The notes beneath the pieces were generated by a model. The model had not been told where the DNA came from. It was given only the letters and a program-made list of their open reading frames with translations, and made no database searches. From the NCBI GenBank assembly GCA_016713875.1, contig JADJOI010000003.1, positions 3,576,069-3,640,068 on the forward strand: a stretch of DNA of 64,000 bases. The letters are read 5' to 3'. Positions 22,935 through 59,603 of this stretch are shown in pieces. Source of the stretch: Flavobacteriales bacterium. GTDB taxonomy: Bacteria; Bacteroidota; Bacteroidia; Flavobacteriales_F; PHOS-HE28. Numbering within the stretch: the first letter of the stretch is position 1; each line of letters opens with the position of its first letter. The position numbers and the translations under genes were made by a program.

Positions 22935-24113
22935 GTAGGTCGGGGGTCTTGATCCCCACCATTGAGAAGGAGTGCTTGCGGCCTCTCGCTCACATGCGGG
23001 AACCGCACCATGGACCTGTTGGAGCCCTTCGAGGAACTGGAAGACCCGCGCATCGACCGCACCAAGCGGTATCCGCTGAGCTCGCTCTTGCTGCTGATCC
23101 TCTCGGCGGTGCTCAGCGATTGCCAGGGAGCCAGCGAGATCGCCCACTTCGGCCTGGCCAAGCTCGATTGGTTCAAACGCCACGGCCACTTCACGGATGA
23201 CAAGGTGCCATCGCACGACACGATCGGCGACCTGCTCCGGCGGCTCGATCCGGTGGCCTTCGCCGCCTGCTTCGCCCGGTGGACGGCCCGCGTGTGCCAG
23301 ATCACCGAAGGAGAGCTGGTGGCCAGTGATGGCAAGCGCTTGCGCGGCAGCTACGATCGGCTCGATGGCAAGGAGGCCATCCACATGATCAGCGCATGGA
23401 GCCACCAGAACCAGCTTGTGCTGGGGCAACTGCAAAGTGGATGGCAAGACCAACGAGATCACGGCCATCCCCGCATTGCTTGAAATGCTGGAGTTGAAGG
23501 GTGGTGAGCATCGATGCCATGGGTTGCCAGAAAAAGATCGCAGCACTGATCCAGGAGCGCAAGGCCGACTATCTCCTGGGCTTGAAGGAGAACCAGCCCG
23601 AACTGCTCGAAGAGGTCGCCCTTGCCTTCGTCCATCACAAGACCCACAGCCACGACCAGCAGGACACCAAAGGCCATGGTCGCGTGGAAACACGCGGATG
23701 CGCGAAGTGATCGACGATCCTACGTGCTCTCCGATGCGGCGCATTGGACCGGCTTGCGTTCACTGGTGCGCGTCCAGGCCATCACCCACCGGGTGATCGA
23801 GAGCAAGACCACCAGCCAGACCCGCTACTACCTCTCCAGCCTCAAGACCGATGCACGCAGGTTCAACGCCCTGATACGCGCCCATTGGGGCATCGAGAAC
23901 TCGCTGCACTGGGTCTTGGACGTCACCTTCCAGGAAGACGCCTCCCGCGTGCGGAAGGACCACGCCGATCGCAATCTGGCCACCATCCGCCGATGGGCCC
24001 TCAACCTCTGTAAACTGGACCGGACACCCAAGCTCACCATGAACCTCAAGCGCAAGCAGGCCTCCTACTCAGATGCCTTCCGTGAGCAACTCCTAAGGAT
24101 TAAGACCCGATAG
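22935..24113 (+). mobile_element. ISAs1-family insertion sequence (degraded)
   Basis: Imperfect terminal inverted repeats tcgggggtcttgatcccc (left) and ggattaagacccga (right). The internal transposase matches ISAs1/H-repeat-associated proteins. Confidence 0.7.
23010..24113 (+). pseudogene. ISAs1-family transposase, at least 3 frameshifts
   Basis: MDLLEPFEELEDPRIDRTKRYPLSSLLLLILSAVL...DGKRLRGSYD; then DGKTNEITAIPALLEMLELKG, MGCQKKIAALIQERKADYLLGLKENQPEL, and THRVIESKTTSQTRYYLSSL...HWGIENSLHWVLDVTFQED in different frames. Confidence 0.75.
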
Positions 24114-28479: not shown

Positions 28480-30308
28480 TCAGCGACAGCTCGAGGATCG
28501 ATCCGCCCTCAGCGGGTTCGTGAGGCTGCCTGCACCAGATGCGTCTTGAAGCAGCAGGATCGCATGCGCCGATCCCGGTTCGTCCGTGTCGATGGGATCT
28601 GCTTCGGAAACGTTGTACCACGTCGAGTGGACCGTCGAAGCACTTCCGGGAAGGACACCAGCGGCCATCCGATCGCGTGCGCGCTGGATGGTTTCCTCGC
28701 GCCATGCGCCTGCCGGGTGCCACGGTGTGATCGTGCAAGCGGCGATCCCATCGTGCTTCATGGCGAAAGGCAATGCGCGTTCACCGGTCGGTTCAAACGA
28801 TGGTTCGCTATCAAGCACGATGTCAGGAACGACACCCTCCAGTTGCACACTGGTCCCCGATGGTCGGAAGAAGAGGCCCACGGTGATCTTGGCGGAACCA
28901 GTGGAGGTCACTGCGCCATCAGCATCAGCGATCGGCGCGAGGGGCACCATGTTCTGGATGGTGCCTTTGCCGTAGGTCCGAGGTCCACCCAGCACCACGG
29001 CGCGCTTGTGGTCCTGCAAGGCGGCCGCGAAGAACTCAGAGGCCGATGCGCTGTGCTCGTTCACGAGCACGACGAGCGGTCCTCGATAGCGGGCCCGCTC
29101 CGGGGTCGTCGAAAGCACGCGCACGGTGCCGTCACGGGGCAAGGCGCTGCGCGACGGGTCCCGCATCGAGAAAGAGGCCGAGGATGTGGATGGTCTCGCT
29201 CATGCTGCCGCCCTGGTTGTCGCGCAGGTCGATGGCGAGGCCGCCGATCCCTGCGTACAGGAGGGTGTCGAGCAGTTCCGCGACGTCCTGGGAACAGCGC
29301 GGCGCGCTCCCGCCGGACAGGTCGGTATAGAAGCGCGGCAAGGTGATCACACCGATGGGTGGACCGGCACCACGCACCACACATGCCCGCGCCTGGCCCG
29401 CCGCAGGGTGGATGAGCGCGCGTTCCAGGACCACGGTCCGTTGTTCGCCGTCCGCCTGGCGAAGGATCAGCTCCAGCGTGCTTCCGGCCGGGCCACGAAG
29501 CAGGTCCACCGTTGCGTCGATGGAAAGACCAGGCACCGGCACGGGTGCGGCGTTCAGCTCGCGCACCGTCAGCAGCTCATCGCCCATGGCCAATGCACCG
29601 CCCAACGCCGCGGGGCCGCCGGGTTCCATCGACCCGATGCGGATGCGGCCATCGGTGCTCGACAGCGTGACACCGATGCCGACGAAGCTCTGCGTCATCG
29701 CATGGTCGAAGCCCGTACGCTCTTCCGCCGACAGGTAGGTGCTTTGTGCGTCATGCACGTTCGCCAGCGTGCCAAGGAAAAGGTCCATGCGTTCTTCACG
29801 TCCGCGCTCGATCCGGGCGCGCAGGTCGTTCTGTGCGCGGGCCCGCACAAGGGCCCTGGCCTCATCTGCGGAACCGCCCAGGGCAGCACGGACCTCCGAG
29901 CTGCGTTCGGCGAGTCGGCAATGCCAGCGTCGGTCCGGTTCTGCGTGCGCAGTGGGCGTGCCGTCCCCATCGACCAGTGCCAGGGCGCAACAGACCGGCG
30001 TACATCAGGCTGTCGCAGCGATGCACGAACGATGGCACACCGTGCGCCAGTTGGTCATCGATGTGCAAGCGATCGCTGGCCAGAATTTCGCGCTCTGGCG
30101 CTGAGAGATAGAGGGTGTCCGGGTCAAGGGTGCGCAGGTAGCTGTCGAAGACGTCCGCTGAGAACCGGTCGTCGATGGCTCGTGGCGCGAAGTGCCGCTC
30201 CCGCAGGATCGTCATCAGCTCGGCGATGCGCGCGCTGTCGGCGTCCAGTTGCGCGGGGCAGAAAGTGCAGCAGGACAGGCAAAGAGCGAATCCCGTGATG
30301 CGTAGCAT
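28480..30308 (-). pseudogene. S41 family C-terminal processing peptidase, at least 2 frameshifts
   Basis: N-terminus ELMTILRERHFAPRAIDDRFSADVFDSYLRTLDPDTLYL. PDZ region; GVITLPRFY...DLRDNQGGS; LVVLVNEHSASASEFFAAALQDHKRAVVLGGPRTYGKGTIQ. Spread over three frames. Confidence 0.75.
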
Positions 30309-30543: not shown

Positions 30544-31416
30544 TCAACGGACCATGACGCGCTCAACGAACCATTCACCTCGACCCGAACTGAACTGCAA
30601 GACATACGCGCCTGGGCGATCGAACGTAATGACCTGTTCGCCACGGACGGTCTGCGCGCTCAATTGCCGTCCGGTCGCGTCGAAGACGGTCATGGAGCCT
30701 TCAACCCCAGTAATGAAGACCGGCTCTCCGCGGGAGGCCAGGGAAGGTCTGATCCACGATCCGGCCTCTTCACGCTCTCCGATCCCGACCCCCAGCGTGC
30801 ATTGCGCGACCAATGGGTTCTGCCAGGTGATATCCGTATCCTCATAACACCGAAGACCCGCGAAGACCTCGCCATCGCAGACGCCATAGAGCCAGGCGAA
30901 CGGCGCGATCAGATTTCCGAGCCGCTCCGTGACCGTACCTCCGAAACCGAAGCTGGACCACTGCCTGGACTCCACGCTCACTTCCAGGCTGCGCAGCGAA
31001 AGTCCATCCACCCAGATCAGGCTCGTATCCAGCACGGTCCAATCGAGTGTATCCTGCTGACCGATCTGCACCACCGGAGTGGACCACACATCACCGATGG
31101 CCGCGTTCCATCGAAAGACCAGATGATGCTGGCCTGTGCTTGATCCGAAGTAGAACAGGGAGTCCTGCGACTCCGAGAGGAACTGGGCAAGTTGATGACA
31201 GCCGAACCAACCCTCGTTGATCTGGAGCTTCTTGCATATTCGGCCCTCGATGAGCGTGTCGCCCGTCACCTCGATCACCATCAGGGCGGTATCTGGACCG
31301 CCCCAATGAGCCTGCTTGTAGGTCCATTTCGCACCGGTCGGAGCGAACGTCGTCTGCGCATGCATCGAGGTCGCGACAAGAGCGGCGCTGAGCGTGAGGA
31401 TCTGCCCGTTGGTCAT
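30544..31416 (-). CDS. T9SS-sorted secreted protein (paralog of 12078-13526)
   Basis: Signal peptide MTNGQILTLSAALVATSMHAQ. FAPTGAKWTY and CDGE..LRCY motifs shared with 12078-13526. C-terminal ...GAYVLQFSSGRGEWFVERVMVR. Confidence 0.6.
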   Translation of the reverse strand: MTNGQILTLSAALVATSMHAQTTFAPTGAKWTYKQAHWGGPDTALMVIEVTGDTLIEGRICKKLQINEGWFGCHQLAQFLSESQDSLFYFGSSTGQHHLVFRWNAAIGDVWSTPVVQIGQQDTLDWTVLDTSLIWVDGLSLRSLEVSVESRQWSSFGFGGTVTERLGNLIAPFAWLYGVCDGEVFAGLRCYEDTDITWQNPLVAQCTLGVGIGEREEAGSWIRPSLASRGEPVFITGVEGSMTVFDATGRQLSAQTVRGEQVITFDRPGAYVLQFSSGRGEWFVERVMVR

Positions 31417-31494
31417 GGCATGGTGAAGATAGACCAACTGGACGCGTTTCCAGGGCGAAGTGCTGCCCGGGATCAGGCCGGACCCCCCCACCCC

Positions 31495-31620
31495 CTCCAA
31501 CGCCACCTTCGCCCCATGCACAGCCTGCCCCGCGCATTTGGCGGGGTTCTTCACGACCTGTCCCGCCTTAGCGGGATCCAGCACGCTGATCCGCAAGGTG
31601 CCTGACACATCGCGGACGTT
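31495..31620 (-). repeat. mfd 3'-end-like fragment F5 (orphan, hairpin-containing)
   Basis: Minus-strand translation ...GTLRISVLDPAKAGQVVKNPAKCAGQAVHGAKVALEGVGG is homologous to the Mfd C-terminus (KFKVYEKAGTLRVSVQD...). Contains the stems ccccgcgcatttggcgggg and tcccgcc..gcggga. Confidence 0.7.
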
Positions 31621-31630
31621 CGGGAGCCTT

Positions 31631-32002
31631 TAGAGCAGATGCAGCGTGAGTTCGTTCTTGAGCTTCTTGAAGTGCTTGTCTTCCGTGACGAGCGGTACTC
31701 CGGAGCCGGATGGCGGTCGCCGCGATCAGCGCATCGGCGAGTTTCATTCGATAACGAGCACGGAAGTCCATGGCTGCTGACTTGATCCCGTCGTCGAGGT
31801 CCACGATCTTGATGAATGCCAGGTCGGCGGTCACTTTCGCACGCTCATGGGCCGTGTAGCCATGAAAGCCGAGTATTTCGATCTCGGTGACGAAGGAGAC
31901 GTGGATGATCGTGTCTTCGAGCAGCGGCGTTGTGCGCGCATCGCCGTCCCAGTGGTGGATCAATACGTTGGTGTCGACCAGCAACGACTTAGCGGTCATC
32001 AC
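31631..32002 (-). pseudogene. vapC: PIN-domain toxin VapC, 1 frameshift near 31690
   Basis: MMTAKSLLVDTNVLIHH...ADALIAATAIRL, then a frame switch to PLVTEDKHFKKLKNELTLHLL*. Confidence 0.65.
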
Positions 32003-32213
32003 GCATGGTCTTCAAATACTCCTTCATACGCTCCGCTATGCCGGGGATCATCCCGGAGGAGCGCTTGGCATCGTAGCCTTTCTGCTTCTGCCGTTTGGAT
32101 GTTGTTCTCGGGGTCGTCTTTCGTGCGTATACGGCCTGCGGGTCGCTCACCACGGTAAGCGCCTTCTCCGAAGTCTGCTTGGGTTTCTTTGGTCGCTTTG
32201 AGCTGGTGGCCAT
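31989..32213 (-). CDS. vapB: VapB-type antitoxin (small basic protein overlapping vapC start)
   Basis: 74 aa. Ends MIPGIAERMKEYLKTMRDDR with a 14-bp overlap of the vapC start codon region. Confidence 0.45.
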   Translation of the reverse strand: MATSSKRPKKPKQTSEKALTVVSDPQAVYARKTTPRTTSKRQKQKGYDAKRSSGMIPGIAERMKEYLKTMRDDR

Positions 32214-32261
32214 GGATCGAAGATAGGTCAGGCCACCTCCTTCACCCCCACCACACTCTCC

Positions 32262-32395
32262 ATTGCCGCCTTCGCCCCTTCGATGTTCTTCACGACCTGT
32301 CCCGCCTCGGCGGGATCCTGCACGCTGATCAGCATCGTTCCCGCCTTCTCGTACACCTTGAATCGGCATGGTTTGCCCTCGGCAAGTTCTCAAGT
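32262..32395 (-). repeat. mfd 3'-end-like fragment F4
   Basis: Encodes ...RFKVYEKAGTMLISVQDPAEAGQVVKNIEGAKAAMESVV...* ; ~85% nt identity to F3 over the core. Confidence 0.7.
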
Positions 32396-32413
32396 GTGAA
32401 TGACCGGCAGGCC

Positions 32414-32977
32414 TCACCGGCGGATCTCGAATCCAGTCTCCGTCGATACAGTGTCAACCATTGGTGCAAGTCGGATCCGATCCTTACGGGTAAAGACCGT
32501 GTCAACTCCCCATTCACCCAACTCACCTGTATTCATCGAAACAACGAGTGTGTCGTTAGTCTCCACGAGGAACGCGCTGCGTTCATAGACGCCGCCATGG
32601 TCGTCGTTCTCGATGAGGGAGAACCAATGGGGCTGCTTCGAGCATCCATCGAAGAGGGTGAGCGTCAGATACCGCACCGCATGGTCGCACTCGGGAGAGC
32701 TGTTCAGCACGAGGAGTCCGATGCGAGATTCTCTTATGATGACCTTGCCTATGACCCACGCAGAATCACTTTCCGTCATTCTCCTGTCGTGGAGGGCATG
32801 GAACCCTTCCGCATCCAGGCGGATCCAACTCGGGTCGATCGCCTTGTCAACGTAATCCAGATCGAAGTGGCGTTCCGATATCTCGGGAACGAGCAAGAGC
32901 ACTTCGCAAAGGTCCTGTGGGGATGAGGGTAGGCGAGAAGCACAAGGTTGACCGAGCACGAGCGGCACACAGGTCAA
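32414..32977 (-). CDS. hypothetical protein (cargo between F3 and F4)
   Basis: Open frame with non-biased composition (…SAWVIGKVIIRESRIGLLVLNSSPECDHAVRYLTLTLFDG…). No family recognised. Start uncertain. Confidence 0.35.
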   Translation of the reverse strand: MTCVPLVLGQPCASRLPSSPQDLCEVLLLVPEISERHFDLDYVDKAIDPSWIRLDAEGFHALHDRRMTESDSAWVIGKVIIRESRIGLLVLNSSPECDHAVRYLTLTLFDGCSKQPHWFSLIENDDHGGVYERSAFLVETNDTLVVSMNTGELGEWGVDTVFTRKDRIRLAPMVDTVSTETGFEIRR

Positions 32978-33079
32978 TTAGGACAGGTAGGGCTTCATGC
33001 CAACTGGTTCAAGTATTGGTTGAACGATCTACGGCCCAAGTTCTTATGCTGCAACGTTCACCTCAACAACCGATTCCAT

Positions 33080-33270
33080 CGCCGCCTTCGCCCCTTCGAT
33101 GTTCTTCACGACCTGTCCCGCCTCGGCGGGATCCTGCACACTGATCCGCGACGTCCCCGCATTCTCGTACACCTTGAACCGTCGTGGTTGCGCCTGCGCG
33201 GCGCGCAGCAGCGCGTTGAAGCCAATGGCCTCAAAGAAGCCATACTTCCGGTCGGCAAAGGCTTCAGGCC
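33080..33270 (-). repeat. mfd 3'-end-like fragment F3 (longest)
   Basis: Encodes AFADRKYGFFEAIGFNALLRAARAQPRRFKVYENAGTSRISVQDPAEAGQVVKNIEGAKAAMESVVEVNVAA*. Aligns with Mfd ...GDGFNAVLRAVQAQPGKFKVYEKAGTLRVSVQDTKTLHEAKEVLGAVLVVPA*. Confidence 0.75.
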
Positions 33271-33563
33271 GCCTTGGCTGTCGCCAGTGGGATCTCCGCC
33301 AACTCCTTGCCTTTTCCTTTGAGCTCTTCTTCGATATCGAAATCGTCCTGTAACCCCAGCCAGAACTTGGCCGAATTACCGAAGTACTTGGAGAGGCGCA
33401 GGGCGGTATCCGCTGTGACGCGACGCTCGCCCTTGATGATCTGAGATACGCGCGTTTGCGGGATACTGATGTCCTTGGCCAGGCGGTAGGCCGTGATGCC
33501 CATGGGTACGAGGAACTCCTCTTCGAGCACAGTGCCGGGGTGGATGTTCGGGAGCTTCTTCAT
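33264..33563 (-). CDS. higA: HigA family antitoxin (XRE HTH)
   Basis: MKKLPNIHPGTVLEEEFLVPMGITAYRLAKDISIPQTRVSQIIKGERRVTADTALRLSKYFGNSAKFWLGLQ. Confidence 0.75.
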   Translation of the reverse strand: MKKLPNIHPGTVLEEEFLVPMGITAYRLAKDISIPQTRVSQIIKGERRVTADTALRLSKYFGNSAKFWLGLQDDFDIEEELKGKGKELAEIPLATAKAA

Positions 33564-33574
33564 GGGTGCTGATC

Positions 33575-33865
33575 TTAATGGTAGTCGATGATCTCCACTT
33601 CGTAGGCGTTGCCGCTTTGCCACTTGAAAATGATGCGCCACTGGTCGTTGATGCGCACGCTATAGAAGTCCTTCAGGCGGCCAGCCAGTTTCTCCAAGCG
33701 GTTGGCGGGTGGGACGCGCAGATCGGCGATGTCTTGGGCGTTGTTGATCATCCGGAGCTTTCTTCTGGCCGTTTCCTGGATCGTCGAAGGCAGTTTCCGC
33801 TGTGGATCACCGTTCCAGATCCCTTCTGTCACCTTCGATCCGAACGACCTGATCATGTCCGGCAA
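33575..33865 (-). CDS. higB: HigB-like toxin (RelE/ParE superfamily)
   Basis: ...RLKDFYSVRINDQWRIIFKWQSGNAYEVEIIDYH is a HigB C-terminal signature. Sits upstream of higA as usual for higBA. Confidence 0.7.
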   Translation of the reverse strand: MPDMIRSFGSKVTEGIWNGDPQRKLPSTIQETARRKLRMINNAQDIADLRVPPANRLEKLAGRLKDFYSVRINDQWRIIFKWQSGNAYEVEIIDYH

Positions 33866-33904
33866 ATATACTATCGCGTGGCGTCACTAGCAACTGCCAC
33901 CCCA

Positions 33905-33950
33905 CCACCCCACCACTCCCTCCATCGCCGCCTTCGCCGCGTGGATGATC
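33905..33950 (-). repeat. mfd 3'-end-like fragment F2 (short; tail only)
   Basis: Encodes ...IIHAAKAAMEGVVG..., matching the AAKAAMESVVG tails of F3 and F4. Confidence 0.5.
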
Positions 33951-33968
33951 TGACCGAAGTAAAGTGGC

Positions 33969-35005
33969 CTAGGTCTTCTTTCGTGTTGCGGACCTCCCCA
34001 TGGTAAGCGCTTTCCTTGCGCTCAACGGTGTTACGACCTTCTTGCCAGTACGAGCCTCCAATTCCAAGCGCGCCACCTTGGCCACGTTCCCACCTTGTCG
34101 CGCCACTTCTTTGTTGTCCTCGAAGGTCTCGGGCTCGGTGGCTTGTGAAATGTCCTTCGCGGATGCCTCGGCAAGCATGTTCAGGATCAGTTCCGTGTTG
34201 GTCATATTGTCGCGGAGGTTCTCCTTCTTCAGGCCCTTGAGCACCTTGTACTCCTTCGTGCTGTTCCCGCTCCACGCCTTGGTGATTATGTCCGTGAGCG
34301 TCGCGAAGTGCATGCCTTCCTTCATCCCGCGTTTCCTCCATTCATCGGTCAGCTCCTTGCGGATCTCGATGCTCTGTAGGGAGGTTCAAAGCACATCGTT
34401 CCGGCGGCGATGTATTGAAGTAGAGTATCAGTGATGCTTGCTCCCGTTCGACCATACGGCGTTGCTCCTAGGCCGGATACTTCGTTCCAGTATCCTTGCC
34501 TCGGAGCGCCTTGTCTGGTCATACGATAGCTGTGCACGCCATCCGTTCGATGTGCTTTGAACCTCCCTGGCCGCTGGTTGATCCAACTCTCCGAGTAGCC
34601 CAGCCGCAGGTATTGTTCAAGCGCACGGTCGATGGTGATCTCCGGATCCGCCATTTCATCCATCCGCTCCGATGCCACTTGTGCCAGCCATAGTTTGAAC
34701 GGCTCGGCCTTGGGTGAAGGGATGGATTGGATCAGCCGGAAGAGCTGCTCGGTGTCGGCCACATCGGTGAGGCGGAGCTTGCCGTCGTCGGCGGGCAATT
34801 TCAACTGTCCGATTTTATCGGACAGTTGGCTGCCTTCCTTCACTAGCTTGGTCTTCAGGTCGTTCCAGTACTTGCGAGGGCGCTCGTTACCGGTGAGGGC
34901 CGCTATCACATCGATGATGGAGAAGAACCACTTCTCCTGCTCCCCGTCCCACACGGTGCGAACCTGCTTCTCCTCGAAGACCTTGATGGCGTTCTTGTCG
35001 GTCAT
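33969..35005 (-). pseudogene. DinD-like / Bro-N domain DNA-damage-inducible protein, at least 2 frameshifts
   Basis: N-terminal part KVFEEKQVRTVWDGEQEKWFFSIIDVIAALTGNERPRKYWNDLKTKL (Bro-N/DinD-like). C-terminal part HFATLTDIITKAWSGNSTKEYKVLKGLKKENLRDNMTNTELILNMLAEA aligns with E. coli DinD residues ~150-200 but lies in a separate ORF. Confidence 0.55.
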
Positions 35006-35059
35006 GATAGGAGCAAGGTAGGGACTGCAAACGCTGCGGCGTTAAGCAGCGACGGTAAT

Positions 35060-35235
35060 GCCCACAACGGATTCCAACGCGTCCTTCGCCGCGTGCACAG
35101 CCTGCCCCGCGCATTTGGCGGGGTTCTTCACATCCTGCACACTGATCCTTAAGGTTCCCGCCTTCTCGTACACCTTGAAGCGTCGCGGTTGCGTCCCGCG
35201 ATTCGCCATCTCGCCTTGCTCGATCGCAAATCACT
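35060..35235 (-). repeat. mfd 3'-end-like fragment F1 (78 bp downstream of the real mfd stop)
   Basis: Encodes ...MANRGTQPRRFKVYEKAGTLRISVQDVKNPAKCAGQAVHAAKDALESVVGITVAA*. Confidence 0.75.
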
Positions 35236-35311
35236 GGATTTCGCCCTCGGTCGCTTTTGCGCCTGCGGTCCATGCCTTCGGCATTGCTCAACTTGCACCG
35301 GGCGCACTGCG

Positions 35312-38300
35312 CTAAGCGGGAACGACCAGCACTGCTCCCAGCACTTCTTTGGCCTCGTGCAAGGTCTTGGTGTCTTGAACACTTACCCTCAACGTACCGG
35401 CCTTTTCATACACTTTGAATTTCCCGGGTTGAGCCTGTACTGCTCTGAGCACCGCATTGAACCCATCCCCCTCGAAGAAGGGATGCTTCTGATCCGCAAT
35501 GAAGGTGCCGATGAGCGTGCCCTTCTTCAGCACCATCTTCGCCAGGCCCATGCGTTGGCCCAGCCAGCGGAGGCGGATGCCTTCCAGCAGTTCGTTCACC
35601 AGTTGCGGGATCGGACCGAAGCGATCGGTGACCTCCGTGGTGAACTTCTGCAGTTCCGCTTCGTCCTTGATGTCGTCCAGTCGGCGGTAGAGCGCGAGGC
35701 GTTCGGCGGTCTCGCTCACGTAGCTGTTGGGGATCAGCATCGTCAGGTCGGTCTCGATGATGCAGTCGTCGCTCTGGTCGCGACGTGATCCGCGGGCCAG
35801 CGCGTGGCTGCCTTCCTGCGCGTCGTCGAAGAGGTCCTTGAAGTGCTGGTCCTTCAGTTCGCGCACGGCCTCTTCGAGGATCTTGTGGTAGGTCTCGAAG
35901 CCGATGTCGTTGATGAAGCCGCTCTGCTCCGCGCCGAGCAGGTCGCCCGCGCCGCGGATGTCGAGGTCCTTCATGGCGATGTGGATGCCGCTGCCCAGGT
36001 CGCTGAACTGCTCGATCGCTTGCAGACGCTTGCGTGAGAGGTCAGGCAGCAAATGTGGACTTGGGGCCAGCAGGTAGCAGTACGCCTTCTTGTTGCTGCG
36101 GCCCACACGTCCGCGCAGTTGGTGCAGATCGCTAAGGCCAAAGTTCTGCGCTTCGTTCACGATGATGGTGTTGGCGTTCGGGATGTCGAGGCCGTTCTCC
36201 ACGATGGTCGTACACACGAGCACGTCGGTGTTGCCCTCGATGAAGTCGAGCATCACCTCTTCCAGCTTGTGCCCTTCCAGTTGACCGTGCCCCACGCCCA
36301 CACGCGCGCCGGGCACCAGCTTGCGGATCATGTCGGCGATGAACTCGATGTTCTTCACCTTGTCGTGCAGGAAGTACACCTGGCCGCCGCGTGAGAGTTC
36401 GTACTCGATCGCGCCACGGATCGTCACCTCATCGTACGGCTGCAACATCGTGGCCACCGGATAACGGTTCGGCGGCGGCGTGCTGATGATGCTGAGGTCG
36501 CGCGCGCCCATGAGACTGAACTGCAACGTGCGCGGGATGGGCGTGGCAGTGAGGGTGAGCGTGTCCACCGTGGCGCGCAGGGTCTTCAGCTTGTCCTTCA
36601 CGTTCACGCCGAACTTCTGCTCCTCGTCGATGATCAGCAGGCCGAGGTCCTTGTACACCACGTCCTTGCTCACCAATCGGTGCGTGCCGATGAGGATGTC
36701 GATCTTCCCTTCCTTCAGGTCTTTCAGGATCTGCGTTTGCTGCGCCGAAGAGCGGAAGCGGTTGATGTAGTCCACGCGCACGGGCAGGCCCTTCATGCGC
36801 GCCGAGAAGCTCTTCCAGTGTTGCAGCGCGAGGATGGTTGTTGGCACCAGCACCGCCGCCTGCTTGCCGTCGCACACCGCTTTGAACGCGGCGCGTATGG
36901 CAACTTCTGTCTTGCCGAAGCCCACATCGCCGCAGACCAGTCGATCCATGGGCACGCCCTTCTCCATATCGCGCTTCACGTCCTGCGTGGCCTTCAACTG
37001 GTCGGGCGTGTCCTCGTAGATGAAGCTCGCCTCCAACTCGTGCTGCAGGTAGTTGTCCGGCTGGAACGCGAAGCCCGGCTTGCTCTTGCGCTGGGCGTAG
37101 AGCTTGATCAGGTCGAAGGCCAGTGCCTTCACTTTCGCCTTGGTCTTTTCCTTCAGGTTCTTCCACGCGGGTGAACCGAGCTTGCTCACAGGCGGCGCAT
37201 TGCCACCTTCTTCACCGCTGTACTTGCTCACGCGGTGCAGGCTGTGGATGCCCACGTAGAGGATGTCGTTGTCGCGGTACTTCAGGCGGATCGCTTCCTG
37301 CATGCTTCCGCCGGCATCGATCGTTTCCAGTCCGCTGAACACACCAACGCCGTGATCGATGTGTACCACGAGGTCGCCGGGCTTCAGTTGCGTCAGCTCC
37401 TTCAGGGTGAGCGCCTGCGAGTTCTTACGGAAGCCCTCCTTCAGCCGGTAGCGGTGGTAACGCTCGAAGATCTGGTGGTCGGTGTAGAGCGCCAGCTTCA
37501 GCTCGGGATCGATGAAGCCCTCGTGCAGGTCGAGCACCAGCGGCGTGAAGGCCACCTCGTGCTCCATGTCGTTGAAGATGGTGTACAGCCGTTCGCTCTG
37601 CTTCGCGCTGTTGCACGCGATGAGATTCGTGTAGCCCGCGTTCTGCTTGTTGTGCAGGTCGCCGCTGAGCACCTTGAACTCCTTGGCGAACGTCGGTTGA
37701 GGCCGTTGCTGGAAGTCCACCACCACTTGCGCCTTACTGTCTTGCGTCGCGTTCCCGTCGCGTCGTTGCGCCGCTGCGGTTACTGCCTTCTCTGTGTCCT
37801 CTGCGTCTCGGTGGTGAATGGATCGCCCCCAGAACACCTTCCTGAACCCCAACGTCCCCTTGATCAACTCACCGTCCGTCGCCAGCAGCTCGTTCGGCGT
37901 GGGATGTTTCTCCTTCTCGGAAAGTCGCTCGTACGCTTCGCCCAGCAACTTCAACTGCTTTGTTGCCGCATCGCCGATGGCTTGCAGATCGCGGAGCCAG
38001 ATCACTGCATCCTCGGGTAGTTGCGCGAAGAAGTTCTGCTGGCGCGCGGTGTCCTCGTCCTGGAGGTCGGGCACGATCACCGCTTCGGCGAGGAACTCCA
38101 CGGTCAATTGGTCCTGCGGATCAAAGCGGCGCACGCTTTCCACGGTGTCGCCGTACAGCTCGATGCGGTAAGGCTTGTCGCTGCCGTAGCTGAACACGTC
38201 CACGATGCCGCCGCGGATGCTGAACTGCCCCGGCTCGTACACGAACTCCACGCGACTGAAGCCGGTCTCGTCCAACCACTCTTGCAGCGTGTCGATCGGC

Positions 38301-38860
38301 AGCTCCTCGTGACGCTTCACGGTGAGCGTGTTGCTCATCATCTCCTCCTGGCCCATCACGAGCGGCACCAGTGCTTCGGGGTAGGTGACGATGATGAGCT
38401 TGTTGGTGATCGGTGAATGGGAGTTGGTGAATGGGGAATGCGCATTCGCACCATTCGCCATTCGCCATTCGATATTCACCCTCATCAACGCTTCCAACAC
38501 TTCCGTCCTTGTGACGCGTTCACCGTCGTGGTGGCCTTCCGGATCGTACGGCGATCGCGAGGGTGCGGGATAGAAGAGCATGTCTTCATCCTTCTTCGCA
38601 TGACGGCCATCCTTGTCCTTGCCACGTAGCGCTTCCAGGTCGTTGATGAAGTAGGCCGCTTCTTCCTTGTCGGTGAGCACGAACACATGCACGCCGCCGC
38701 GCTGCTCGATGACCGACGCGGCGATCAGCGCTTGCGCCGAACCGATGGTGCCCGCGATCTGCACGCGCGCGGAATCTGGTTGCAGGCCTTCGGCGATGCG
38801 CGCGACGCGTGGGTCGTTGCGGTAGAGGGTGAGTAGGTCGGGGAGGGAGGTCAAAGGCAT
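35312..38860 (-). CDS. mfd: transcription-repair coupling factor
   Basis: 1182 aa, intact. UvrB-interaction region, DEAD/DEAH helicase motifs (GDVGFGKTEVA, LIIDEEQKFG), TRCF domain. Confidence 0.95.
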   Translation of the reverse strand: MPLTSLPDLLTLYRNDPRVARIAEGLQPDSARVQIAGTIGSAQALIAASVIEQRGGVHVFVLTDKEEAAYFINDLEALRGKDKDGRHAKKDEDMLFYPAPSRSPYDPEGHHDGERVTRTEVLEALMRVNIEWRMANGANAHSPFTNSHSPITNKLIIVTYPEALVPLVMGQEEMMSNTLTVKRHEELPIDTLQEWLDETGFSRVEFVYEPGQFSIRGGIVDVFSYGSDKPYRIELYGDTVESVRRFDPQDQLTVEFLAEAVIVPDLQDEDTARQQNFFAQLPEDAVIWLRDLQAIGDAATKQLKLLGEAYERLSEKEKHPTPNELLATDGELIKGTLGFRKVFWGRSIHHRDAEDTEKAVTAAAQRRDGNATQDSKAQVVVDFQQRPQPTFAKEFKVLSGDLHNKQNAGYTNLIACNSAKQSERLYTIFNDMEHEVAFTPLVLDLHEGFIDPELKLALYTDHQIFERYHRYRLKEGFRKNSQALTLKELTQLKPGDLVVHIDHGVGVFSGLETIDAGGSMQEAIRLKYRDNDILYVGIHSLHRVSKYSGEEGGNAPPVSKLGSPAWKNLKEKTKAKVKALAFDLIKLYAQRKSKPGFAFQPDNYLQHELEASFIYEDTPDQLKATQDVKRDMEKGVPMDRLVCGDVGFGKTEVAIRAAFKAVCDGKQAAVLVPTTILALQHWKSFSARMKGLPVRVDYINRFRSSAQQTQILKDLKEGKIDILIGTHRLVSKDVVYKDLGLLIIDEEQKFGVNVKDKLKTLRATVDTLTLTATPIPRTLQFSLMGARDLSIISTPPPNRYPVATMLQPYDEVTIRGAIEYELSRGGQVYFLHDKVKNIEFIADMIRKLVPGARVGVGHGQLEGHKLEEVMLDFIEGNTDVLVCTTIVENGLDIPNANTIIVNEAQNFGLSDLHQLRGRVGRSNKKAYCYLLAPSPHLLPDLSRKRLQAIEQFSDLGSGIHIAMKDLDIRGAGDLLGAEQSGFINDIGFETYHKILEEAVRELKDQHFKDLFDDAQEGSHALARGSRRDQSDDCIIETDLTMLIPNSYVSETAERLALYRRLDDIKDEAELQKFTTEVTDRFGPIPQLVNELLEGIRLRWLGQRMGLAKMVLKKGTLIGTFIADQKHPFFEGDGFNAVLRAVQAQPGKFKVYEKAGTLRVSVQDTKTLHEAKEVLGAVLVVPA

Positions 38861-38874
38861 CGCTGTTGAATCAC

Positions 38875-39804
38875 CTATTTCGAGTTCGATTGCGTAGTCA
38901 GATGGTCTTCTAGAATGACTCCCGGAGGAAATGAGAAGAGTAGTTCTCGGTACTCAGAAAGAACTGCTTGCTCTCGTGACTTTTTCCAGATTTCTACAAA
39001 GCCGTTGAGCACGTCTCTGTTCCAAGCGGCCACATAACGACTGGCCTGCTCAATGGCGAGGATATTGTAGGCTACAGCATGAGTCTTTGTACTGCCAGTC
39101 CAATCTGTGTTCTCCGGGATTGACCAGTATAGTCGTTGGCTCGAAAGAGGGAACACGAAATTCCTGAACACATCTTCATTCCTCTTGGGCGTATTACGAT
39201 ATATGACTGGATGATCACCAAGCACTAAGAATGGGATGTCCATCTGGCCAACGTGCGAGTATGCTGGTTGTTCGAACGCCTTGCCGGACTCGAAGTACTT
39301 GAGAAATTGCTCTGCTGAAAGGAAGGATCTTTCGAGTTGTATTCCATCCAAAATTCCTAGAATACGTGCTGGGTCTTCACGGATGGAAGGGTCATCAGAC
39401 AATGCGAACTTGAGTCTGTCAAATGCCTTAACAGCGAAATGGCTGTCTCGTTGAGGTGACCTAACCCATTGTGTTGCGACGAAACCGAGCGCCCCCAGCA
39501 TACGGTCCTGTGTGAGAAGGCCAGTTGCCGTTGGCTCAGTTGCCAAGGCATTCAAACGTGCTGCGGTAAGTGTTTCATTCTTTTGGTAGATGGTTTCGGG
39601 TAAGGAGGCTGGGATGTCCCCCATCATCACAGTGTTCCGATCCCATTCAAAGAACAGTTGCTTGGGAGAGAATGCCTTGCGTTCGACCTTTCCAGTTTTC
39701 TTGTCAAAGCGATAGAGCTTCCCATCCGGATTACAGAAGTTGGCCTGGAAGGACTCAGGGATGTAATGATGCCTATGTGAGTCAGGGGTATTCATCGACG
39801 CCAA
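38875..39804 (-). CDS. DUF4238 domain protein
   Basis: N-terminal HHYIPESF motif characteristic of DUF4238. 309 aa, intact. Confidence 0.6.
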   Translation of the reverse strand: MASMNTPDSHRHHYIPESFQANFCNPDGKLYRFDKKTGKVERKAFSPKQLFFEWDRNTVMMGDIPASLPETIYQKNETLTAARLNALATEPTATGLLTQDRMLGALGFVATQWVRSPQRDSHFAVKAFDRLKFALSDDPSIREDPARILGILDGIQLERSFLSAEQFLKYFESGKAFEQPAYSHVGQMDIPFLVLGDHPVIYRNTPKRNEDVFRNFVFPLSSQRLYWSIPENTDWTGSTKTHAVAYNILAIEQASRYVAAWNRDVLNGFVEIWKKSREQAVLSEYRELLFSFPPGVILEDHLTTQSNSK

Positions 39805-54149: not shown

Positions 54150-54215
54150 GTGGCGAGTAGGGAGTGGCGAGTGGCGAGTGGCGAGTAGCGAGTAGGGAGT
54201 GGTGAGGGATGCGGC
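54150..54215 (+). repeat. 21-bp GC-rich tandem repeat (short downstream block)
   Basis: gtggcgagtagggagtggcgagtggcgagtggcgagtagcgagtagggagtgg. Confidence 0.8.
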
Positions 54216-54639: not shown

Positions 54640-55360
54640 TGGGTGGGGATGGGTCGGGTTACGAGTAGCGAGTACCGAGTGGCGAGTAGCGAGTAGCGAG
54701 TACCGAGTGGCGAGTAGTGAGTACCGAGTGGCGAGTAGTGAGTACCGAGTGGCGAGTAGTGAGTACCGAGTGGCGAGTAGTGAGTACCGAGTGGCGAGTA
54801 GCGAGTAGCGAGTGGCGAGTAGTGAGTACCGAGTGGCGAGTAGTGAGTACCGAGTGGCGAGTAGTGAGTACCGAGTGGCGAGTAGTGAGTACCGAGTGGC
54901 GAGTAGTGAGTACCGAGTGGCGAGTAGCGAGTACCGGTGGCGAGTAGTGAGTGCCGAGTGGCGAGTAGTGAGTACCGAGTGGCGAGAAGCGAGTACCGAG
55001 TGGCGAGTAGTGAGTAGCGAGTGGCGAGTAGTGAGTACCGAGTGGCGAGTAGTGAGTACCGAGTGGCGAGTAGTGAGTACCGAGTGGCGAGTAGTGAGTA
55101 CCGAGTGGCGAGTAGTGAGTACCGAGTGGCGAGTAGCGAGTACCGAGTGGCGAGTAGTGAGTACCGAGTGGCGAGTAGTGAGTACCGGTGGCGAGTAGCG
55201 AGTACCGAGTGGCGAGTAGTGAGTACCGAGTGGCGAGTAGTGAGTACCGAGTGGCGAGTAGTGAGTACCGAGTGGCGAGTAGCGAGTACCGAGTGGCGAG
55301 TAGTGAGTACCGAGTGGCGAGTAGCGAGTACCGAGTGGCGAGTACCGAGTGGGTTGCTGG
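54640..55360 (+). repeat. 21-bp tandem satellite, ~34 copies (unit tggcgagtagtgagtaccgag with gcg/gtg variants)
   Basis: Perfectly phased 21-bp periodicity over ~720 bp. The track ORFs (TRYSLLATRYSLL.., SSEYRVASSEYRV..) are translations of the repeat. Confidence 0.9.
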
Positions 55361-58580: not shown

Positions 58581-59603
58581 ATGCCCACCGGCCTTGTGAT
58601 GCGCTCCACCGGCAGCCGCTACCTGGTGCGTGGCGACGACGGCACGCTGCACGAGTGCGTGGCCAAGGGCAACCTGCGGATCAAGGGGTGGAAGAGCACG
58701 AACCCGGTGGCGGTGGGCGATCGGGTGGACTTCAGCCCGCAGGAGGATGCGGACCACCCGGGCGCCATCACCGACCTGCACGACCGGCGCAACTACCTGG
58801 TGCGGCGCAGCGTGAACCTGAGCCACCACAAGCATGTGATCGCCGCCAATCTGGACCAGGCGCTGCTGATCGTGACGGTGGCGCGCCCGCGCACCTCCAC
58901 GGGCTTCATCGACCGCTTCCTGGTGACCGCCGAGGCTTACCAGGTGCCGGTGGTGCTGGTGGTGAACAAGGTGGACGACCTGGCCGACGACGAGATGGAG
59001 GACCTGGCGGAGCTGGTGGACACCTACCAGCAGGCGGGCTATCGGGTGCTGATGACCTCGGCGCGGACCGGGGCCGGGGTGGACGATGTGCGGGAGCTGC
59101 TCGCCGGCCGGGTGACCTTGGTGGCCGGGCACAGCGGGGTGGGGAAGAGCACCCTCATCAACAGCATCGATCCGGCGCTCGACCTGCACACCGCCGTCAT
59201 CAGCGAGGCCAGTGAGAAGGGCCAGCACACCACCACCTACGCCGAGATGTTCGAGCTGGGAGTGGCGAGTGATGAATTGCGAGTGGCGAGTGATCAGCCG
59301 GCTGACACTCGCCGCTCGTCACTCGCCACTCAGGCCGTGATCCCACCGACCTTCATCATCGACACCCCCGGCATCAAGGGCTTCGGGCTGGTGGACCTGG
59401 AGGCCGAGGACATCGGCGATCAGTTCCCCGAGATCTTCCGGTTGAAGGGCGGTTGCCGCTTCAACAACTGCCTGCACAAGGACGAACCCGGCTGTGCGGT
59501 GCGCGCCGCGGTGGAGGCTGGAGAGCTGGCCGGAAGCCGCTACAGCAGCTACCGCGACATGCTCGAGGGCATCGATGAGGAGAGTCCTTACCGACTGGAT
59601 TGA
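58581..59603 (+). CDS. rsgA: ribosome small-subunit-dependent GTPase A, carrying a 26-aa in-frame palindromic insertion
   Basis: OB domain; G motifs (VVNKVD, GHSGVGKSTLIN, DTPG); C-terminal zinc-finger CLHKDEPGC. Insertion GVASDELRVASDQPADTRRSSLATQAV lies between HTTT and IIDTPG. Confidence 0.85.
   Translation: MPTGLVMRSTGSRYLVRGDDGTLHECVAKGNLRIKGWKSTNPVAVGDRVDFSPQEDADHPGAITDLHDRRNYLVRRSVNLSHHKHVIAANLDQALLIVTVARPRTSTGFIDRFLVTAEAYQVPVVLVVNKVDDLADDEMEDLAELVDTYQQAGYRVLMTSARTGAGVDDVRELLAGRVTLVAGHSGVGKSTLINSIDPALDLHTAVISEASEKGQHTTTYAEMFELGVASDELRVASDQPADTRRSSLATQAVIPPTFIIDTPGIKGFGLVDLEAEDIGDQFPEIFRLKGGCRFNNCLHKDEPGCAVRAAVEAGELAGSRYSSYRDMLEGIDEESPYRLD
59259..59332 (+). repeat. 74-bp imperfect palindromic (MITE/REP-like) element inside rsgA
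   Basis: gagtggcgagtgatgaattgcgagtggcgagtgatcagc | gctgacactcgccgctcgtcactcgccactc. The arms are reverse complements. Core GTGGCGAGT is shared with the 21-bp satellite. Confidence 0.8.

Follow-up and report, generated by a model that had tools for sequence, protein, structure and literature searches.

We analysed a 64,000-nucleotide stretch of DNA from a Flavobacteriales bacterium (the window) around the 3' end of mfd, the gene of the transcription-repair coupling factor, downstream of which displaced copies of that end alternate with toxin–antitoxin (TA) modules and other small genes. mfd lies on the minus strand (35312..38860), as do all the features of the array that it anchors, and is an intact 1182-aa open reading frame (ORF); mfd of L189 and L190 carries the Pfam families UvrB_inter, CarD_TRCF_RID, DEAD, Helicase_C and TRCF (L-numbers are labels of the loci and contigs that were compared). 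A 330-nt nucleotide profile, made from 42 intact mfd tails of related genomes and searched with nhmmer, gave five additional matches in the window, every one of them downstream of mfd and on the same strand (E 5e-37 to 4e-4), and blastn revealed no further tail copy in the 64 kb. These matches confirm the five copies, F1 to F5, that a first-pass annotation of this DNA had proposed, with coordinates that were correct to ~20–40 nt.

Read outward from mfd, the array begins with F1 (match 35044-35194, tail 35042..35194; E 3e-23), which runs from profile position ~195–203 to its own stop codon, its peptide ending in ...QPRRFKVYEKAGTLRISVQDVKN[PAKCAGQA]VHAAKDALESVVGITVAA*, and is followed by a Bro-N/DinD-like gene (33969..35005; Pfam Bro-N, E 6e-10). 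F2 (match 33909-33951, tail 33877..33951; E 4e-4) is a minimal displaced tail that extends from profile ~269 to a frameshifted ...VATDATR* end; it precedes a higBA pair spanning 33264..33865, in which higB (33575-33865) matches HigB-like_toxin (E 8e-24) and higA (33264-33563) matches HTH_3 (E 3e-8), and for which gene calls were also made in L189. F3, the longest displaced tail of the window (match 33045-33258, tail 33044..33258; E 5e-37), starts at profile 137 (...KYGFFEAIGFNALLRAA...) and reaches the stop; after it comes the gene of a hypothetical protein (32414..32977; a 187-aa ORF, called as 162 aa in L189), for which no Pfam family was found. F4 (match 32230-32373, tail 32228..32373; E 6e-21), from profile 206, is followed by a small vapB-like gene (31989-32213, 74 aa) that overlaps vapC (31630-32002; Pfam PIN, E 4e-13). 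F5 (31488..31606; E 1e-5), from profile 234, has lost its stop codon, and its reading frame continues into the next ORF. The cargo between the copies is therefore as first annotated: a Bro-N gene, HigB with a helix-turn-helix antitoxin, a hypothetical gene, and a PIN toxin with a small gene upstream of it. Both higBA and vapBC have the organization of type II TA systems, namely an adjacent pair of small toxin and antitoxin genes with family domains.

The copies are indeed diverged from mfd: F1–F5 are 58–66% identical to the window's own mfd tail and 81–90% identical to tails of other genomes (for F1, 84% to the live tails of L006, L037 and L043 versus 66% to that of the window). When 31 fragments from all loci were compared with their nearest intact tails, the differences per site at codon positions 1, 2 and 3 were 0.121, 0.102 and 0.243, respectively, compared to 0.066, 0.039 and 0.230 among intact tails. 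The concentration of differences at the third position suggests that most of the divergence arose in the coding state, and the excess at positions 1 and 2, together with the stops and frameshifts present in several fragments, points to decay after displacement. As judged from this pattern, the fragments are former coding sequences from various lineages, which gained most of their divergence while coding and then decayed. The same codon-position structure shows that the similarity to Mfd is not an artefact of GC bias.

It also bears on the idea of a generic repetitive extragenic palindromic (REP)-type repeat that resembles mfd by chance, or of an artefact of assembly or binning. GC-rich hairpins followed by the motif CAGGYYGTG do occur in many unrelated metagenome contigs: a metagenome scan with this pattern, which is too permissive to gauge specificity for mfd tails, returned mostly unrelated REP-like palindromes and two tail-bearing contigs (L087 and L112). 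But the fragments align to the mfd tail over 43–214 nt with codon-position structure, and within 0.87 Mb of related DNA they are found only downstream of mfd and not at unrelated loci. Moreover, the identical array order is present, at 99.2–100% identity, on contigs of at least 10 independent samples, including a contig of 1.29 Mb, which argues against an assembly artefact. We consider both explanations refuted.

The live mfd gene of the window has itself an atypical end. From profile position ~200 to the stop (35312..35436), it looks foreign, with A/T-rich third codon positions and a protein end that reads ...SVQDTKTLHEAKEVLGAVLVVPA. Up to profile ~190 the gene resembles its relatives, with a median identity of 79–87% per bin, whereas from ~200 on its identity to all other intact tails is 72, 63, 57 and 43% in successive bins; in the alignment of intact tails, the window-specific third-position changes to A or T begin near profile 195–205. 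F1 is clade-typical in sequence, and its start at ~195–203, as given by local alignment, coincides with the switch in the live tail. A live tail that is foreign from ~200 and a first fragment that starts at ~195–203 are the footprint expected of a displacement: the foreign end and the 117-nt spacer that follows it (35195..35311, no ORF) would occupy the exact spot where the native end was cut and shifted. The architecture of L054 appears to be the same as that of the window.

By eye only, the spacer looks like approximately three degenerate copies of a REP-like unit, GAGCGGAGCGAAG-TCCCGC-loop-GCGGGA, which is found intact in the L054 spacer (two tandem copies), in L024 and in L046. A blastn search of the array against all loci yielded no homologue of the spacer among the other loci. 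The possibility that the spacer is a degraded upstream part of the tail was rejected, as the resemblance is not significant (157 of 500 shuffles score equally well). Note that the 5' flank of mfd is also an insertion point, since it varies between strains: a low-GC DUF4238 gene (38875-39804) lies directly upstream of mfd in the window and in L189, and ~60 nt stand in its place in L190 and L191, where mfd was called 17 aa longer.

The array of the window is one of many. With the Mfd C-terminus as query, 57 loci were recovered from genomes that each represent a species, nearly all of these being metagenome-assembled genomes labelled Flavobacteriales. Forty-seven loci combine an intact tail with 1 kb or more of sequence beyond it; in 19 of these, additional fragments follow mfd on its own strand (one fragment in 13 loci, two in five and three in one), establishing the mfd 3' end as a recurrent insertion point. 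More arrays were found on the metagenome contigs L001–L004, L087, L112 and L187, and searches of public data with fragment peptides returned ~30 further short ORFs of the same type. The tail 3' end is kept in 35/35 fragments (profile end at least 301), and the 5' side is lost to a variable extent: the 5' ends range from beyond the profile start or ~7 up to position 277, with clusters near 264–277, 191–214, 124–153 and 67–98. Fragments as minimal as F2 are present in L007, L011, L022 and L039 (that of L030, with E 0.85, is not significant). At the other extreme, some exceed the profile: L011 has a partial mfd of 468 aa, and in L055/L030 a second, full tail is located 10.9 kb further downstream. 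The repeat ranges from ~45 nt to 1.4 kb in length, and the units are sometimes shorter than 1 kb.

The cargo of these loci consists of TA modules and defence-type genes: HigBA, VapBC/PIN, Bro-N and RhuM; DUF2130, Schlafen/AlbA_2 and a MORC-like HATPase; an OLD-TOPRIM protein with a UvrD-family helicase (Gabija-like) and AAA_13; HsdM with SNF2 and AIPR; a cytosine methyltransferase cluster; and several secreted proteins, two of them with hits to sorting domains of the type IX secretion system. The locus therefore acts as a TA/defence island. Gene order 3' of mfd is not conserved between species of the clade. Cassette number and content vary between related genomes (0–3 fragments and differing cargo over the 47 species loci), but no cassette turnover was seen among the sampled members of the window's own species, in which only the DUF4238 gene upstream of mfd varies. 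Separately, the short-read contig L198 contains 600 nt (653-1252) identical to the mfd end, spacer, F1 and Bro-N start of the window, flanked by unrelated high-GC sequence; it may be a chimera or the same unit in another context, and was not used as evidence. Our literature searches found no paper describing mfd as an insertion hotspot.

The first-pass annotation had attributed the array to serial site-specific or Campbell-type integration, each incoming element supplying a replacement gene end, and had noted the absence of an integrase. On the latter point our scans agree with it: Pfam found none in the array cargo of the window or in ~15 kb beyond the array, where the only mobile-element gene is a broken ISAs1 transposase, split in two (22962-24113, ~7 kb beyond F5). 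No recombinase was recognised in the ORF translations of the remaining window, which were read by eye only, or in the 10-kb flanks that were annotated with Pfam in L189 and L190, and neither an integrase nor an intact transposase was present among ~40 cargo and flank proteins from other loci, in the 19 arrays or on the metagenome contigs. No viral contig encoding or containing an mfd tail was found.

These negative results have to be set against a familiar architecture. Tandem accretion at the 3' ends of genes and tRNA genes is known to include integrase-less cis-mobilizable elements (CIMEs), as in ICESt1/CIME at fda and in tRNA-island arrays. As at mfd, direct repeats of the target 3' end bound the units, the target remains intact, the units stack in tandem and the cargo is accessory. 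In tandem accretion, however, each repeat is an att site at which a tyrosine or serine recombinase, carried by at least one element or a relative, makes its crossover at a fixed point, whereas the mfd arrays have 3'-end direct repeats of variable length, with no recombinase found in any array and no common crossover point. One could still suppose that integrase-bearing islands stacked at the mfd 3' end were reduced to integrase-less remnants resembling the CIMEs of fda or tRNA genes: each repeat derives from the 3' end of a target gene that stays intact, as with many tyrosine-integrase elements, and some inserts are large (8 kb in L011, 10.9 kb in L055/L030). We regard such decay as highly unlikely, given that an integrase is seen in 0/19 arrays and on no metagenome contig, large inserts included, that the repeats have no common crossover start, that no viral contig bears an mfd-tail attP, and that cassettes of ~0.8–1.1 kb would have required the full and repeated loss of all mobility genes. 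More generally, fragment starts as variable as these cannot be reconciled with a single crossover point at an att site. Site-specific integration of that kind is not supported, given 5' ends that vary from ~7 to 277, the 468-aa partial mfd, and the lack of a recombinase in the scanned arrays and flanks and of an mfd tail on phage contigs; a replacement end that displaces the old one downstream is retained, and the homology-based variant is compatible with the data.

Direct evidence on the origin of the units came from a blastn comparison of the array with all loci: every unit of the window, that is, a fragment and the cargo following it, is colinear with a live mfd tail and the same cargo in another genome. 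F1 and the DinD-like gene have counterparts in L014 and L024; F2 and higBA in L017, L040 and L036 (also L037 and L053); F3 and the hypothetical gene in L006 and L007; F4 and vapBC in L028 (also, as a fragment, in L015); and F5 and the last gene in L013 and L010, where the live-tail end is followed by the same gene. F4 with vapBC is 86% identical to the L015 fragment with vapBC, and the colinearity of F3 and its gene extends into the start of F4, which corresponds to a fragment placed after the live tail and the same gene in L006 (83%) and L007 (80%). In L013, mfd is followed by the secreted-protein gene, the S41 peptidase gene and the gene of a tetratricopeptide repeat (TPR) protein, without any cassette; since the downstream order of the window stands there directly after mfd, L013 represents the unoccupied state of the window locus.

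The joints between units are informative as to where exchange may take place. The last tail codons go with the following cargo (...NVAA* before the hypothetical gene, ...T(D/N)A(I/S/T)R* before higBA), and in four species with near-identical tails the similarity ends at the last mfd codons. The 5' junction of a fragment, for its part, goes with the preceding cargo: the junction between the hypothetical gene and the fragment after it is homologous in the window, L006 and L007, while the DNA that follows the fragment is different in all three. A shared 5' junction followed by differing DNA suggests that exchange occurs inside the conserved part of the tail copies.

Taken with what was observed of the array, namely its anatomy, its recurrence, a live tail of foreign type and no recombinase in cis, these correspondences lead us to an explanation that we hold to be probable, if well short of certain: the array is the sediment of successive gene-end displacements at the mfd 3' end, and homologous recombination spreads the cassettes. 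The following account of how the DNA arrived, how it was recombined and in what order is an inference. Because the downstream DNA is unconserved between species, incoming DNA of relatives would have a reliable homology anchor on one side only, in mfd. A molecule consisting of a 3' part of mfd, the stop codon and cargo would be joined on its left by homologous recombination within mfd, and the founding right join, inside the resident tail, would be illegitimate (break repair or homology-facilitated illegitimate recombination). mfd would remain intact with the donor's end, and the resident end, truncated at the join, would shift downstream with its old neighbours. The resulting arrangement of mfd, cargo and displaced end could then move between genomes or array positions by double-crossover homologous recombination, the left arm being mfd and the right arm being the donor's displaced end, paired with the live tail of the recipient or with another displaced end; a dedicated recombinase would not be needed. 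Repeated events would give mfd-F1-cargo-F2-cargo and so on, with the oldest unit beside the original neighbour, making F5 the presumptive oldest displaced tail of the window. The gene end itself is probably the homology that allows cassettes to be added and swapped. This displacement model would account for the polarity of the arrays, the nested 5' truncations, the linkage patterns, the footprint in the window, the mosaic of fragments and the absence of a recombinase.

Several points weigh against the displacement model. First, an unbiased illegitimate join does not predict that fragment starts cluster, with two clusters at the insertion sites of palindromes (see below); the clustering could indicate preferred break or recombination sites. 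Second, homology-facilitated illegitimate recombination, in experiments with Acinetobacter and Streptococcus, usually replaces recipient DNA and does not duplicate the anchor, so that a duplicative founding join would be unusual and the founding step is the weakest link. Third, minimal fragments of ~45 nt are poor RecA substrates, yet they persist. Fourth, the organisms are uncultured, with no known competence or other route of DNA transfer, and all sampled strains of the species share one array, no event having been caught in the act. Finally, the inspection for recombinases covered one 64-kb window and, around mfd, ~10 kb to either side, which leaves room for an enzyme encoded elsewhere.

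Displacement of gene ends has precedents. Jackson and colleagues reportedly described, in 2009, C-terminal displacement arrays of Rhs and CdiA genes. The effector–immunity modules of the type VI secretion system (T6SS) of Vibrio cholerae undergo sequential displacement without a recombinase, followed by later block exchange through homologous recombination (Kirchberger et al. 2017, PMC5361080). In the Rhs, CdiA and T6SS arrays as at mfd, a conserved gene body is the homology anchor, the incoming module replaces the 3' end, and the old 3' end is shifted downstream with a conserved vestige, giving strings of orphan ends; at the mfd locus, too, an intact gene is followed by displaced 3' ends in series, and a conserved vestige opens each of them. 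The displaced ends of the Rhs, CdiA and T6SS arrays, however, are the part that varies and has a function, as toxin tips with immunity genes, and are under selection, whereas the mfd array is anchored in a housekeeping repair gene whose end is conserved and, once displaced, dispensable; here the variable part is the independent TA and defence cargo after the stop codon, and the ends carry palindromic inserts. The mfd locus is thus not a polymorphic-toxin array: its displaced ends are conserved Mfd tails, separate from the cargo (HigBA, PIN, Bro-N and others). By this analogy, displacement arrays as such are known from Rhs and T6SS loci, and the novelty would lie in the same logic applied to a housekeeping-gene anchor with independent cargo. 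The sequences are consistent with formation by homologous and illegitimate recombination without a dedicated recombinase.

The palindromes call for a separate examination. The GC-rich stem-loops that the first-pass annotation had reported in the copies are present as described and are absent from live tails. One of them, H1 (TCCCGCCGAGGCGGGA), lies in F3 (33116-33131), F4 (32300-32315) and F5 (31561-31576), which makes three matches in the window versus 0.09 expected by chance; another, H2 (CCCCGCCAAATGCGCGGGG), lies in F1 (35105-35123) and F5 (31528-31546). H2 of F1 belongs to an in-frame insert of 24 nt that follows GTGAAGAAC (profile 273) and recurs in F5 and L007 and, as a 23-nt variant, in L005. 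Overall, inserts of at least 6 nt relative to the profile are found in 12/35 fragments and in 0/49 live tails (Fisher p = 7e-6). Their main types are one of 21 nt after ...CAGGAT (CCCGCYNNGGCGGGACAGGTC) and the 24-nt type after GTGAAGAAC (CCCGCCAAATGCGCGGGGCAGGCT), with 42-nt variants; further palindromes are located near profile ~250 (TCCGCCGTWCGGCGGA), and still others directly adjoin F1 and the L054 fragment at their 5' junctions. The insert lengths are nearly all multiples of three (21, 24, 42), the exception being the 23-nt insert of L005. A 33-nt insert was deduced from the peptides P0011 and P0019; searches with fragment peptides missed full-length Mfd proteins and are uninformative on inserts in live Mfd. 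Stems are kept and loops vary; the L031 insert (CCCCGGCTCAAGGCCGGGG) forms CCCCGGC...GCCGGGG with one compensatory pair differing. Orthologous fragments differ in the presence of palindromes (F4 versus its L015 counterpart, which has no H1; L187 versus L017), which suggests that palindromes were gained, lost or converted independently of the backbone.

Similar elements also occur outside the tails. A 24-nt in-frame insert, TCCCGYCGYAGCGGGA, is present in the region encoding the N-terminus of higA in L011 (19756) and L039 (11125) (MKKSS[SRRSGK]LPNIHP) and is absent from the higA gene of the window. The 0.87 Mb of related DNA contains 14 TCCCG..CGGGA hairpins; displaced tails account for 7 of them, and most others lie in the same cassette zone. 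The hairpins do not, as had been proposed, characterize a special pseudo-3'-end repeat. They are short palindromic inserts in their own right, placed at fixed positions in mfd tails that are otherwise ordinary, and related palindromes are found in cassette genes and spacers of that zone as well as in unrelated metagenome contigs. Three other identities were tried and rejected, since a consensus scan flagged none of the palindromes as an intrinsic terminator, no Rfam family matched, and folding z-scores for the base composition (-1.4 to +0.1) did not mark them as unusually stable.

Short GC-rich palindromes are known from REP elements, which are linked to REP-associated tyrosine transposases (RAYTs), and from Rickettsia palindromic elements (RPEs). 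The mfd palindromes resemble both in size (~16–33 nt), in occurring as single or tandem units and in lying, for some, in frame within coding sequence (higA of L011 and L039); they differ in not being dispersed and, in the mfd copies, in having no GTAG-type 5' motif. Dispersed copies were found neither in the 64-kb window, where the three H1 copies are all in fragments, nor in the 0.87 Mb of related DNA, and no RAYT gene was seen in the inspected regions, no test aimed at RAYT having been made. Looking further afield, the exact 24-mer CCCGCTATGGCGGGACAGGTCGTG, a hairpin variant from the L012 mfd fragment, is present in L097, L104 and L123 (also L107, L144, L148 and L173), metagenome contigs of low GC content (35–42%) in which it stands in non-mfd, apparently non-coding contexts, sometimes with a second similar unit a few bases on; L097 and the fragment-bearing contig L001 come from the same sample. 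In L083, L095, L116, L119 and L121, the hairpin core is the inner stem of longer palindromes starting with GTAG. Such a GTAG start is a hallmark of RAYT-type REP elements. Matches to group II intron D1-D4 lie near some of the hairpin hits (L097, L124, L126). We regard the palindromes as REP/RPE-like passengers or repair scars tolerated in cast-off DNA and not as recombination sites; given their coincidence with clusters of fragment starts, they may have a role in breakage or recombination.

That coincidence is the starting point of two other explanations. In the first, palindromes drive the process: break-prone inserts (SbcCD-type cleavage, replication stalling) would be repaired from a horizontally acquired template, and repair would produce the displacements. 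Fragment starts do gather at the insertion sites (profile ~200, 264 and 273), palindromic units are found at the F1 and L054 junctions, F1 starts where the live gene is joined, which a copy-and-join event initiated by a break would predict, and the insert lengths, nearly all multiples of three, together with the deduced 33-nt insert and the 24-nt insert in higA, suggest an origin or survival in translated genes. But palindromes are in none of the 49 live mfd tails and are lacking from the majority of displaced ends; the clusters may partly reflect shared junction ancestry or local alignments that stop at inserts. Such a role seems to us improbable.

The second explanation is integron-like, or akin to integrative mobile elements exploiting Xer (IMEX): a recombinase encoded elsewhere, or a host enzyme, would recognise the palindromes or a site within the conserved final ~45 nt of the tail, and would insert and excise circular cassettes with one tail copy each. 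All fragments, including the minimal ones, keep the same ~45 nt (profile ~265–311). As in chromosomal integrons and in clusters of attC sites lacking integron-integrases (CALINs), the cassettes are small, co-oriented and TA-rich, with separators of ~50–200 nt that may contain a hairpin, and entry apparently takes place at the head of the array. The distribution of palindromes (12/35 fragments versus 0/49 live tails), the compensatory pair of L031 with stems kept and loops variable, the match of palindrome sites with two clusters of fragment starts and the palindromic units bordering F1 and the L054 fragment at the 5' junction can also be read in this way. The separator, however, is the end of a protein gene and not an attC site, for which R''/L''-L'/R' boxes and the core GTTRRRY are typical: GTGGTGGGG or GTTGTTGGGG stands at the end of the tail, with no consistent GTTRRRY, most separators have no inverted repeat (no dedicated attC model was run), and inspection of the tail revealed neither an integron core nor a dif-like architecture. 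The array is anchored to mfd and not to attI, and no IntI or other recombinase was found in the window array, ~15 kb beyond it or the L189/L190 flanks, although CALINs lack IntI too; nor was one found in the rest of the 64-kb window or among the inspected products of the cassette zones and flanks of other loci. In addition, hairpins are optional, 23/35 fragments having none, their presence is unequal between the orthologous fragments cited above, their position relative to the cargo is not fixed, and their folding energies are unexceptional with no Rfam family. We judge an integron-like or IMEX-like system unlikely. The more specific proposal that the palindrome-bearing displaced ends are the working recombination sites of a cassette system without a linked recombinase, served by a trans-acting or host enzyme or by structure-induced breakage, so that a gene end would have become an integron-like platform, is in our estimation rather more doubtful still.

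Some details of the window genes remain to be mentioned. The Bro-N/DinD gene is split into ORFs of 218 and 118 aa by a 191-nt insert (34378-34568) with 32-nt inverted ends, resembling a miniature inverted-repeat transposable element; the counterpart in L014 is a single 281-aa ORF, the alignment to L014/L024 shows a gap of 196 nt, and the split is seen in every strain sampled. A second copy of this insert, in L011 (17243-17370), adjoins the large partial mfd copy on its upstream side. vapC is frameshifted by 1 nt in the window alone, an intact 122-aa PIN protein being present in L182, L184, L185 and L189–L192. Downstream of the array, the gene of a putative secreted protein (30544..31608, minus strand; ~346 aa, with a likely true start near 31416) was also called in L189, and no Pfam family was found for it. 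Beyond it lies the S41 peptidase gene (28480-30308), which is frameshifted in the window and encodes an intact 599-aa peptidase in other assemblies of the same species. Since vapC and the S41 peptidase gene are intact in these other assemblies, their breaks in the window are probably sequencing errors.

Other repeats were seen elsewhere in the window. Approximately 33 tandem copies of a 21-nt unit (...EYRVASS...) lie between the genes of ribosomal protein L21 and S-adenosylmethionine synthetase (54662-55352), with a related 57-nt stretch upstream and a palindromic copy inside an RsgA-like gene (sites 54150-54206 and 59260-59331). Pairs of short direct repeats with 87–90% identity are located at 18010-18115/17465-17571, 1284-1335/505-556 and 28350-28398/24658-24706, the last of which connects the end of a TPR-sensor paralogue with a spot near the S41 peptidase gene.

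If the displacement model is correct, a conserved housekeeping gene would serve as a one-sided landing pad, its cast-off ends becoming portable homology arms, and TA and anti-phage cassettes would spread without mobile-element machinery. This would help to explain how recombinase-free defence islands are assembled and exchanged at hotspots where gene order is unconserved. The stack would record the order of acquisition, and same-strand, 5'-truncated copies of the 3' end of a core gene would provide a signature with which such hotspots and their history can be searched for in genomes and metagenomes. The palindromes that mark the cast-off ends may, in turn, bear on how breaks or recombination are targeted.

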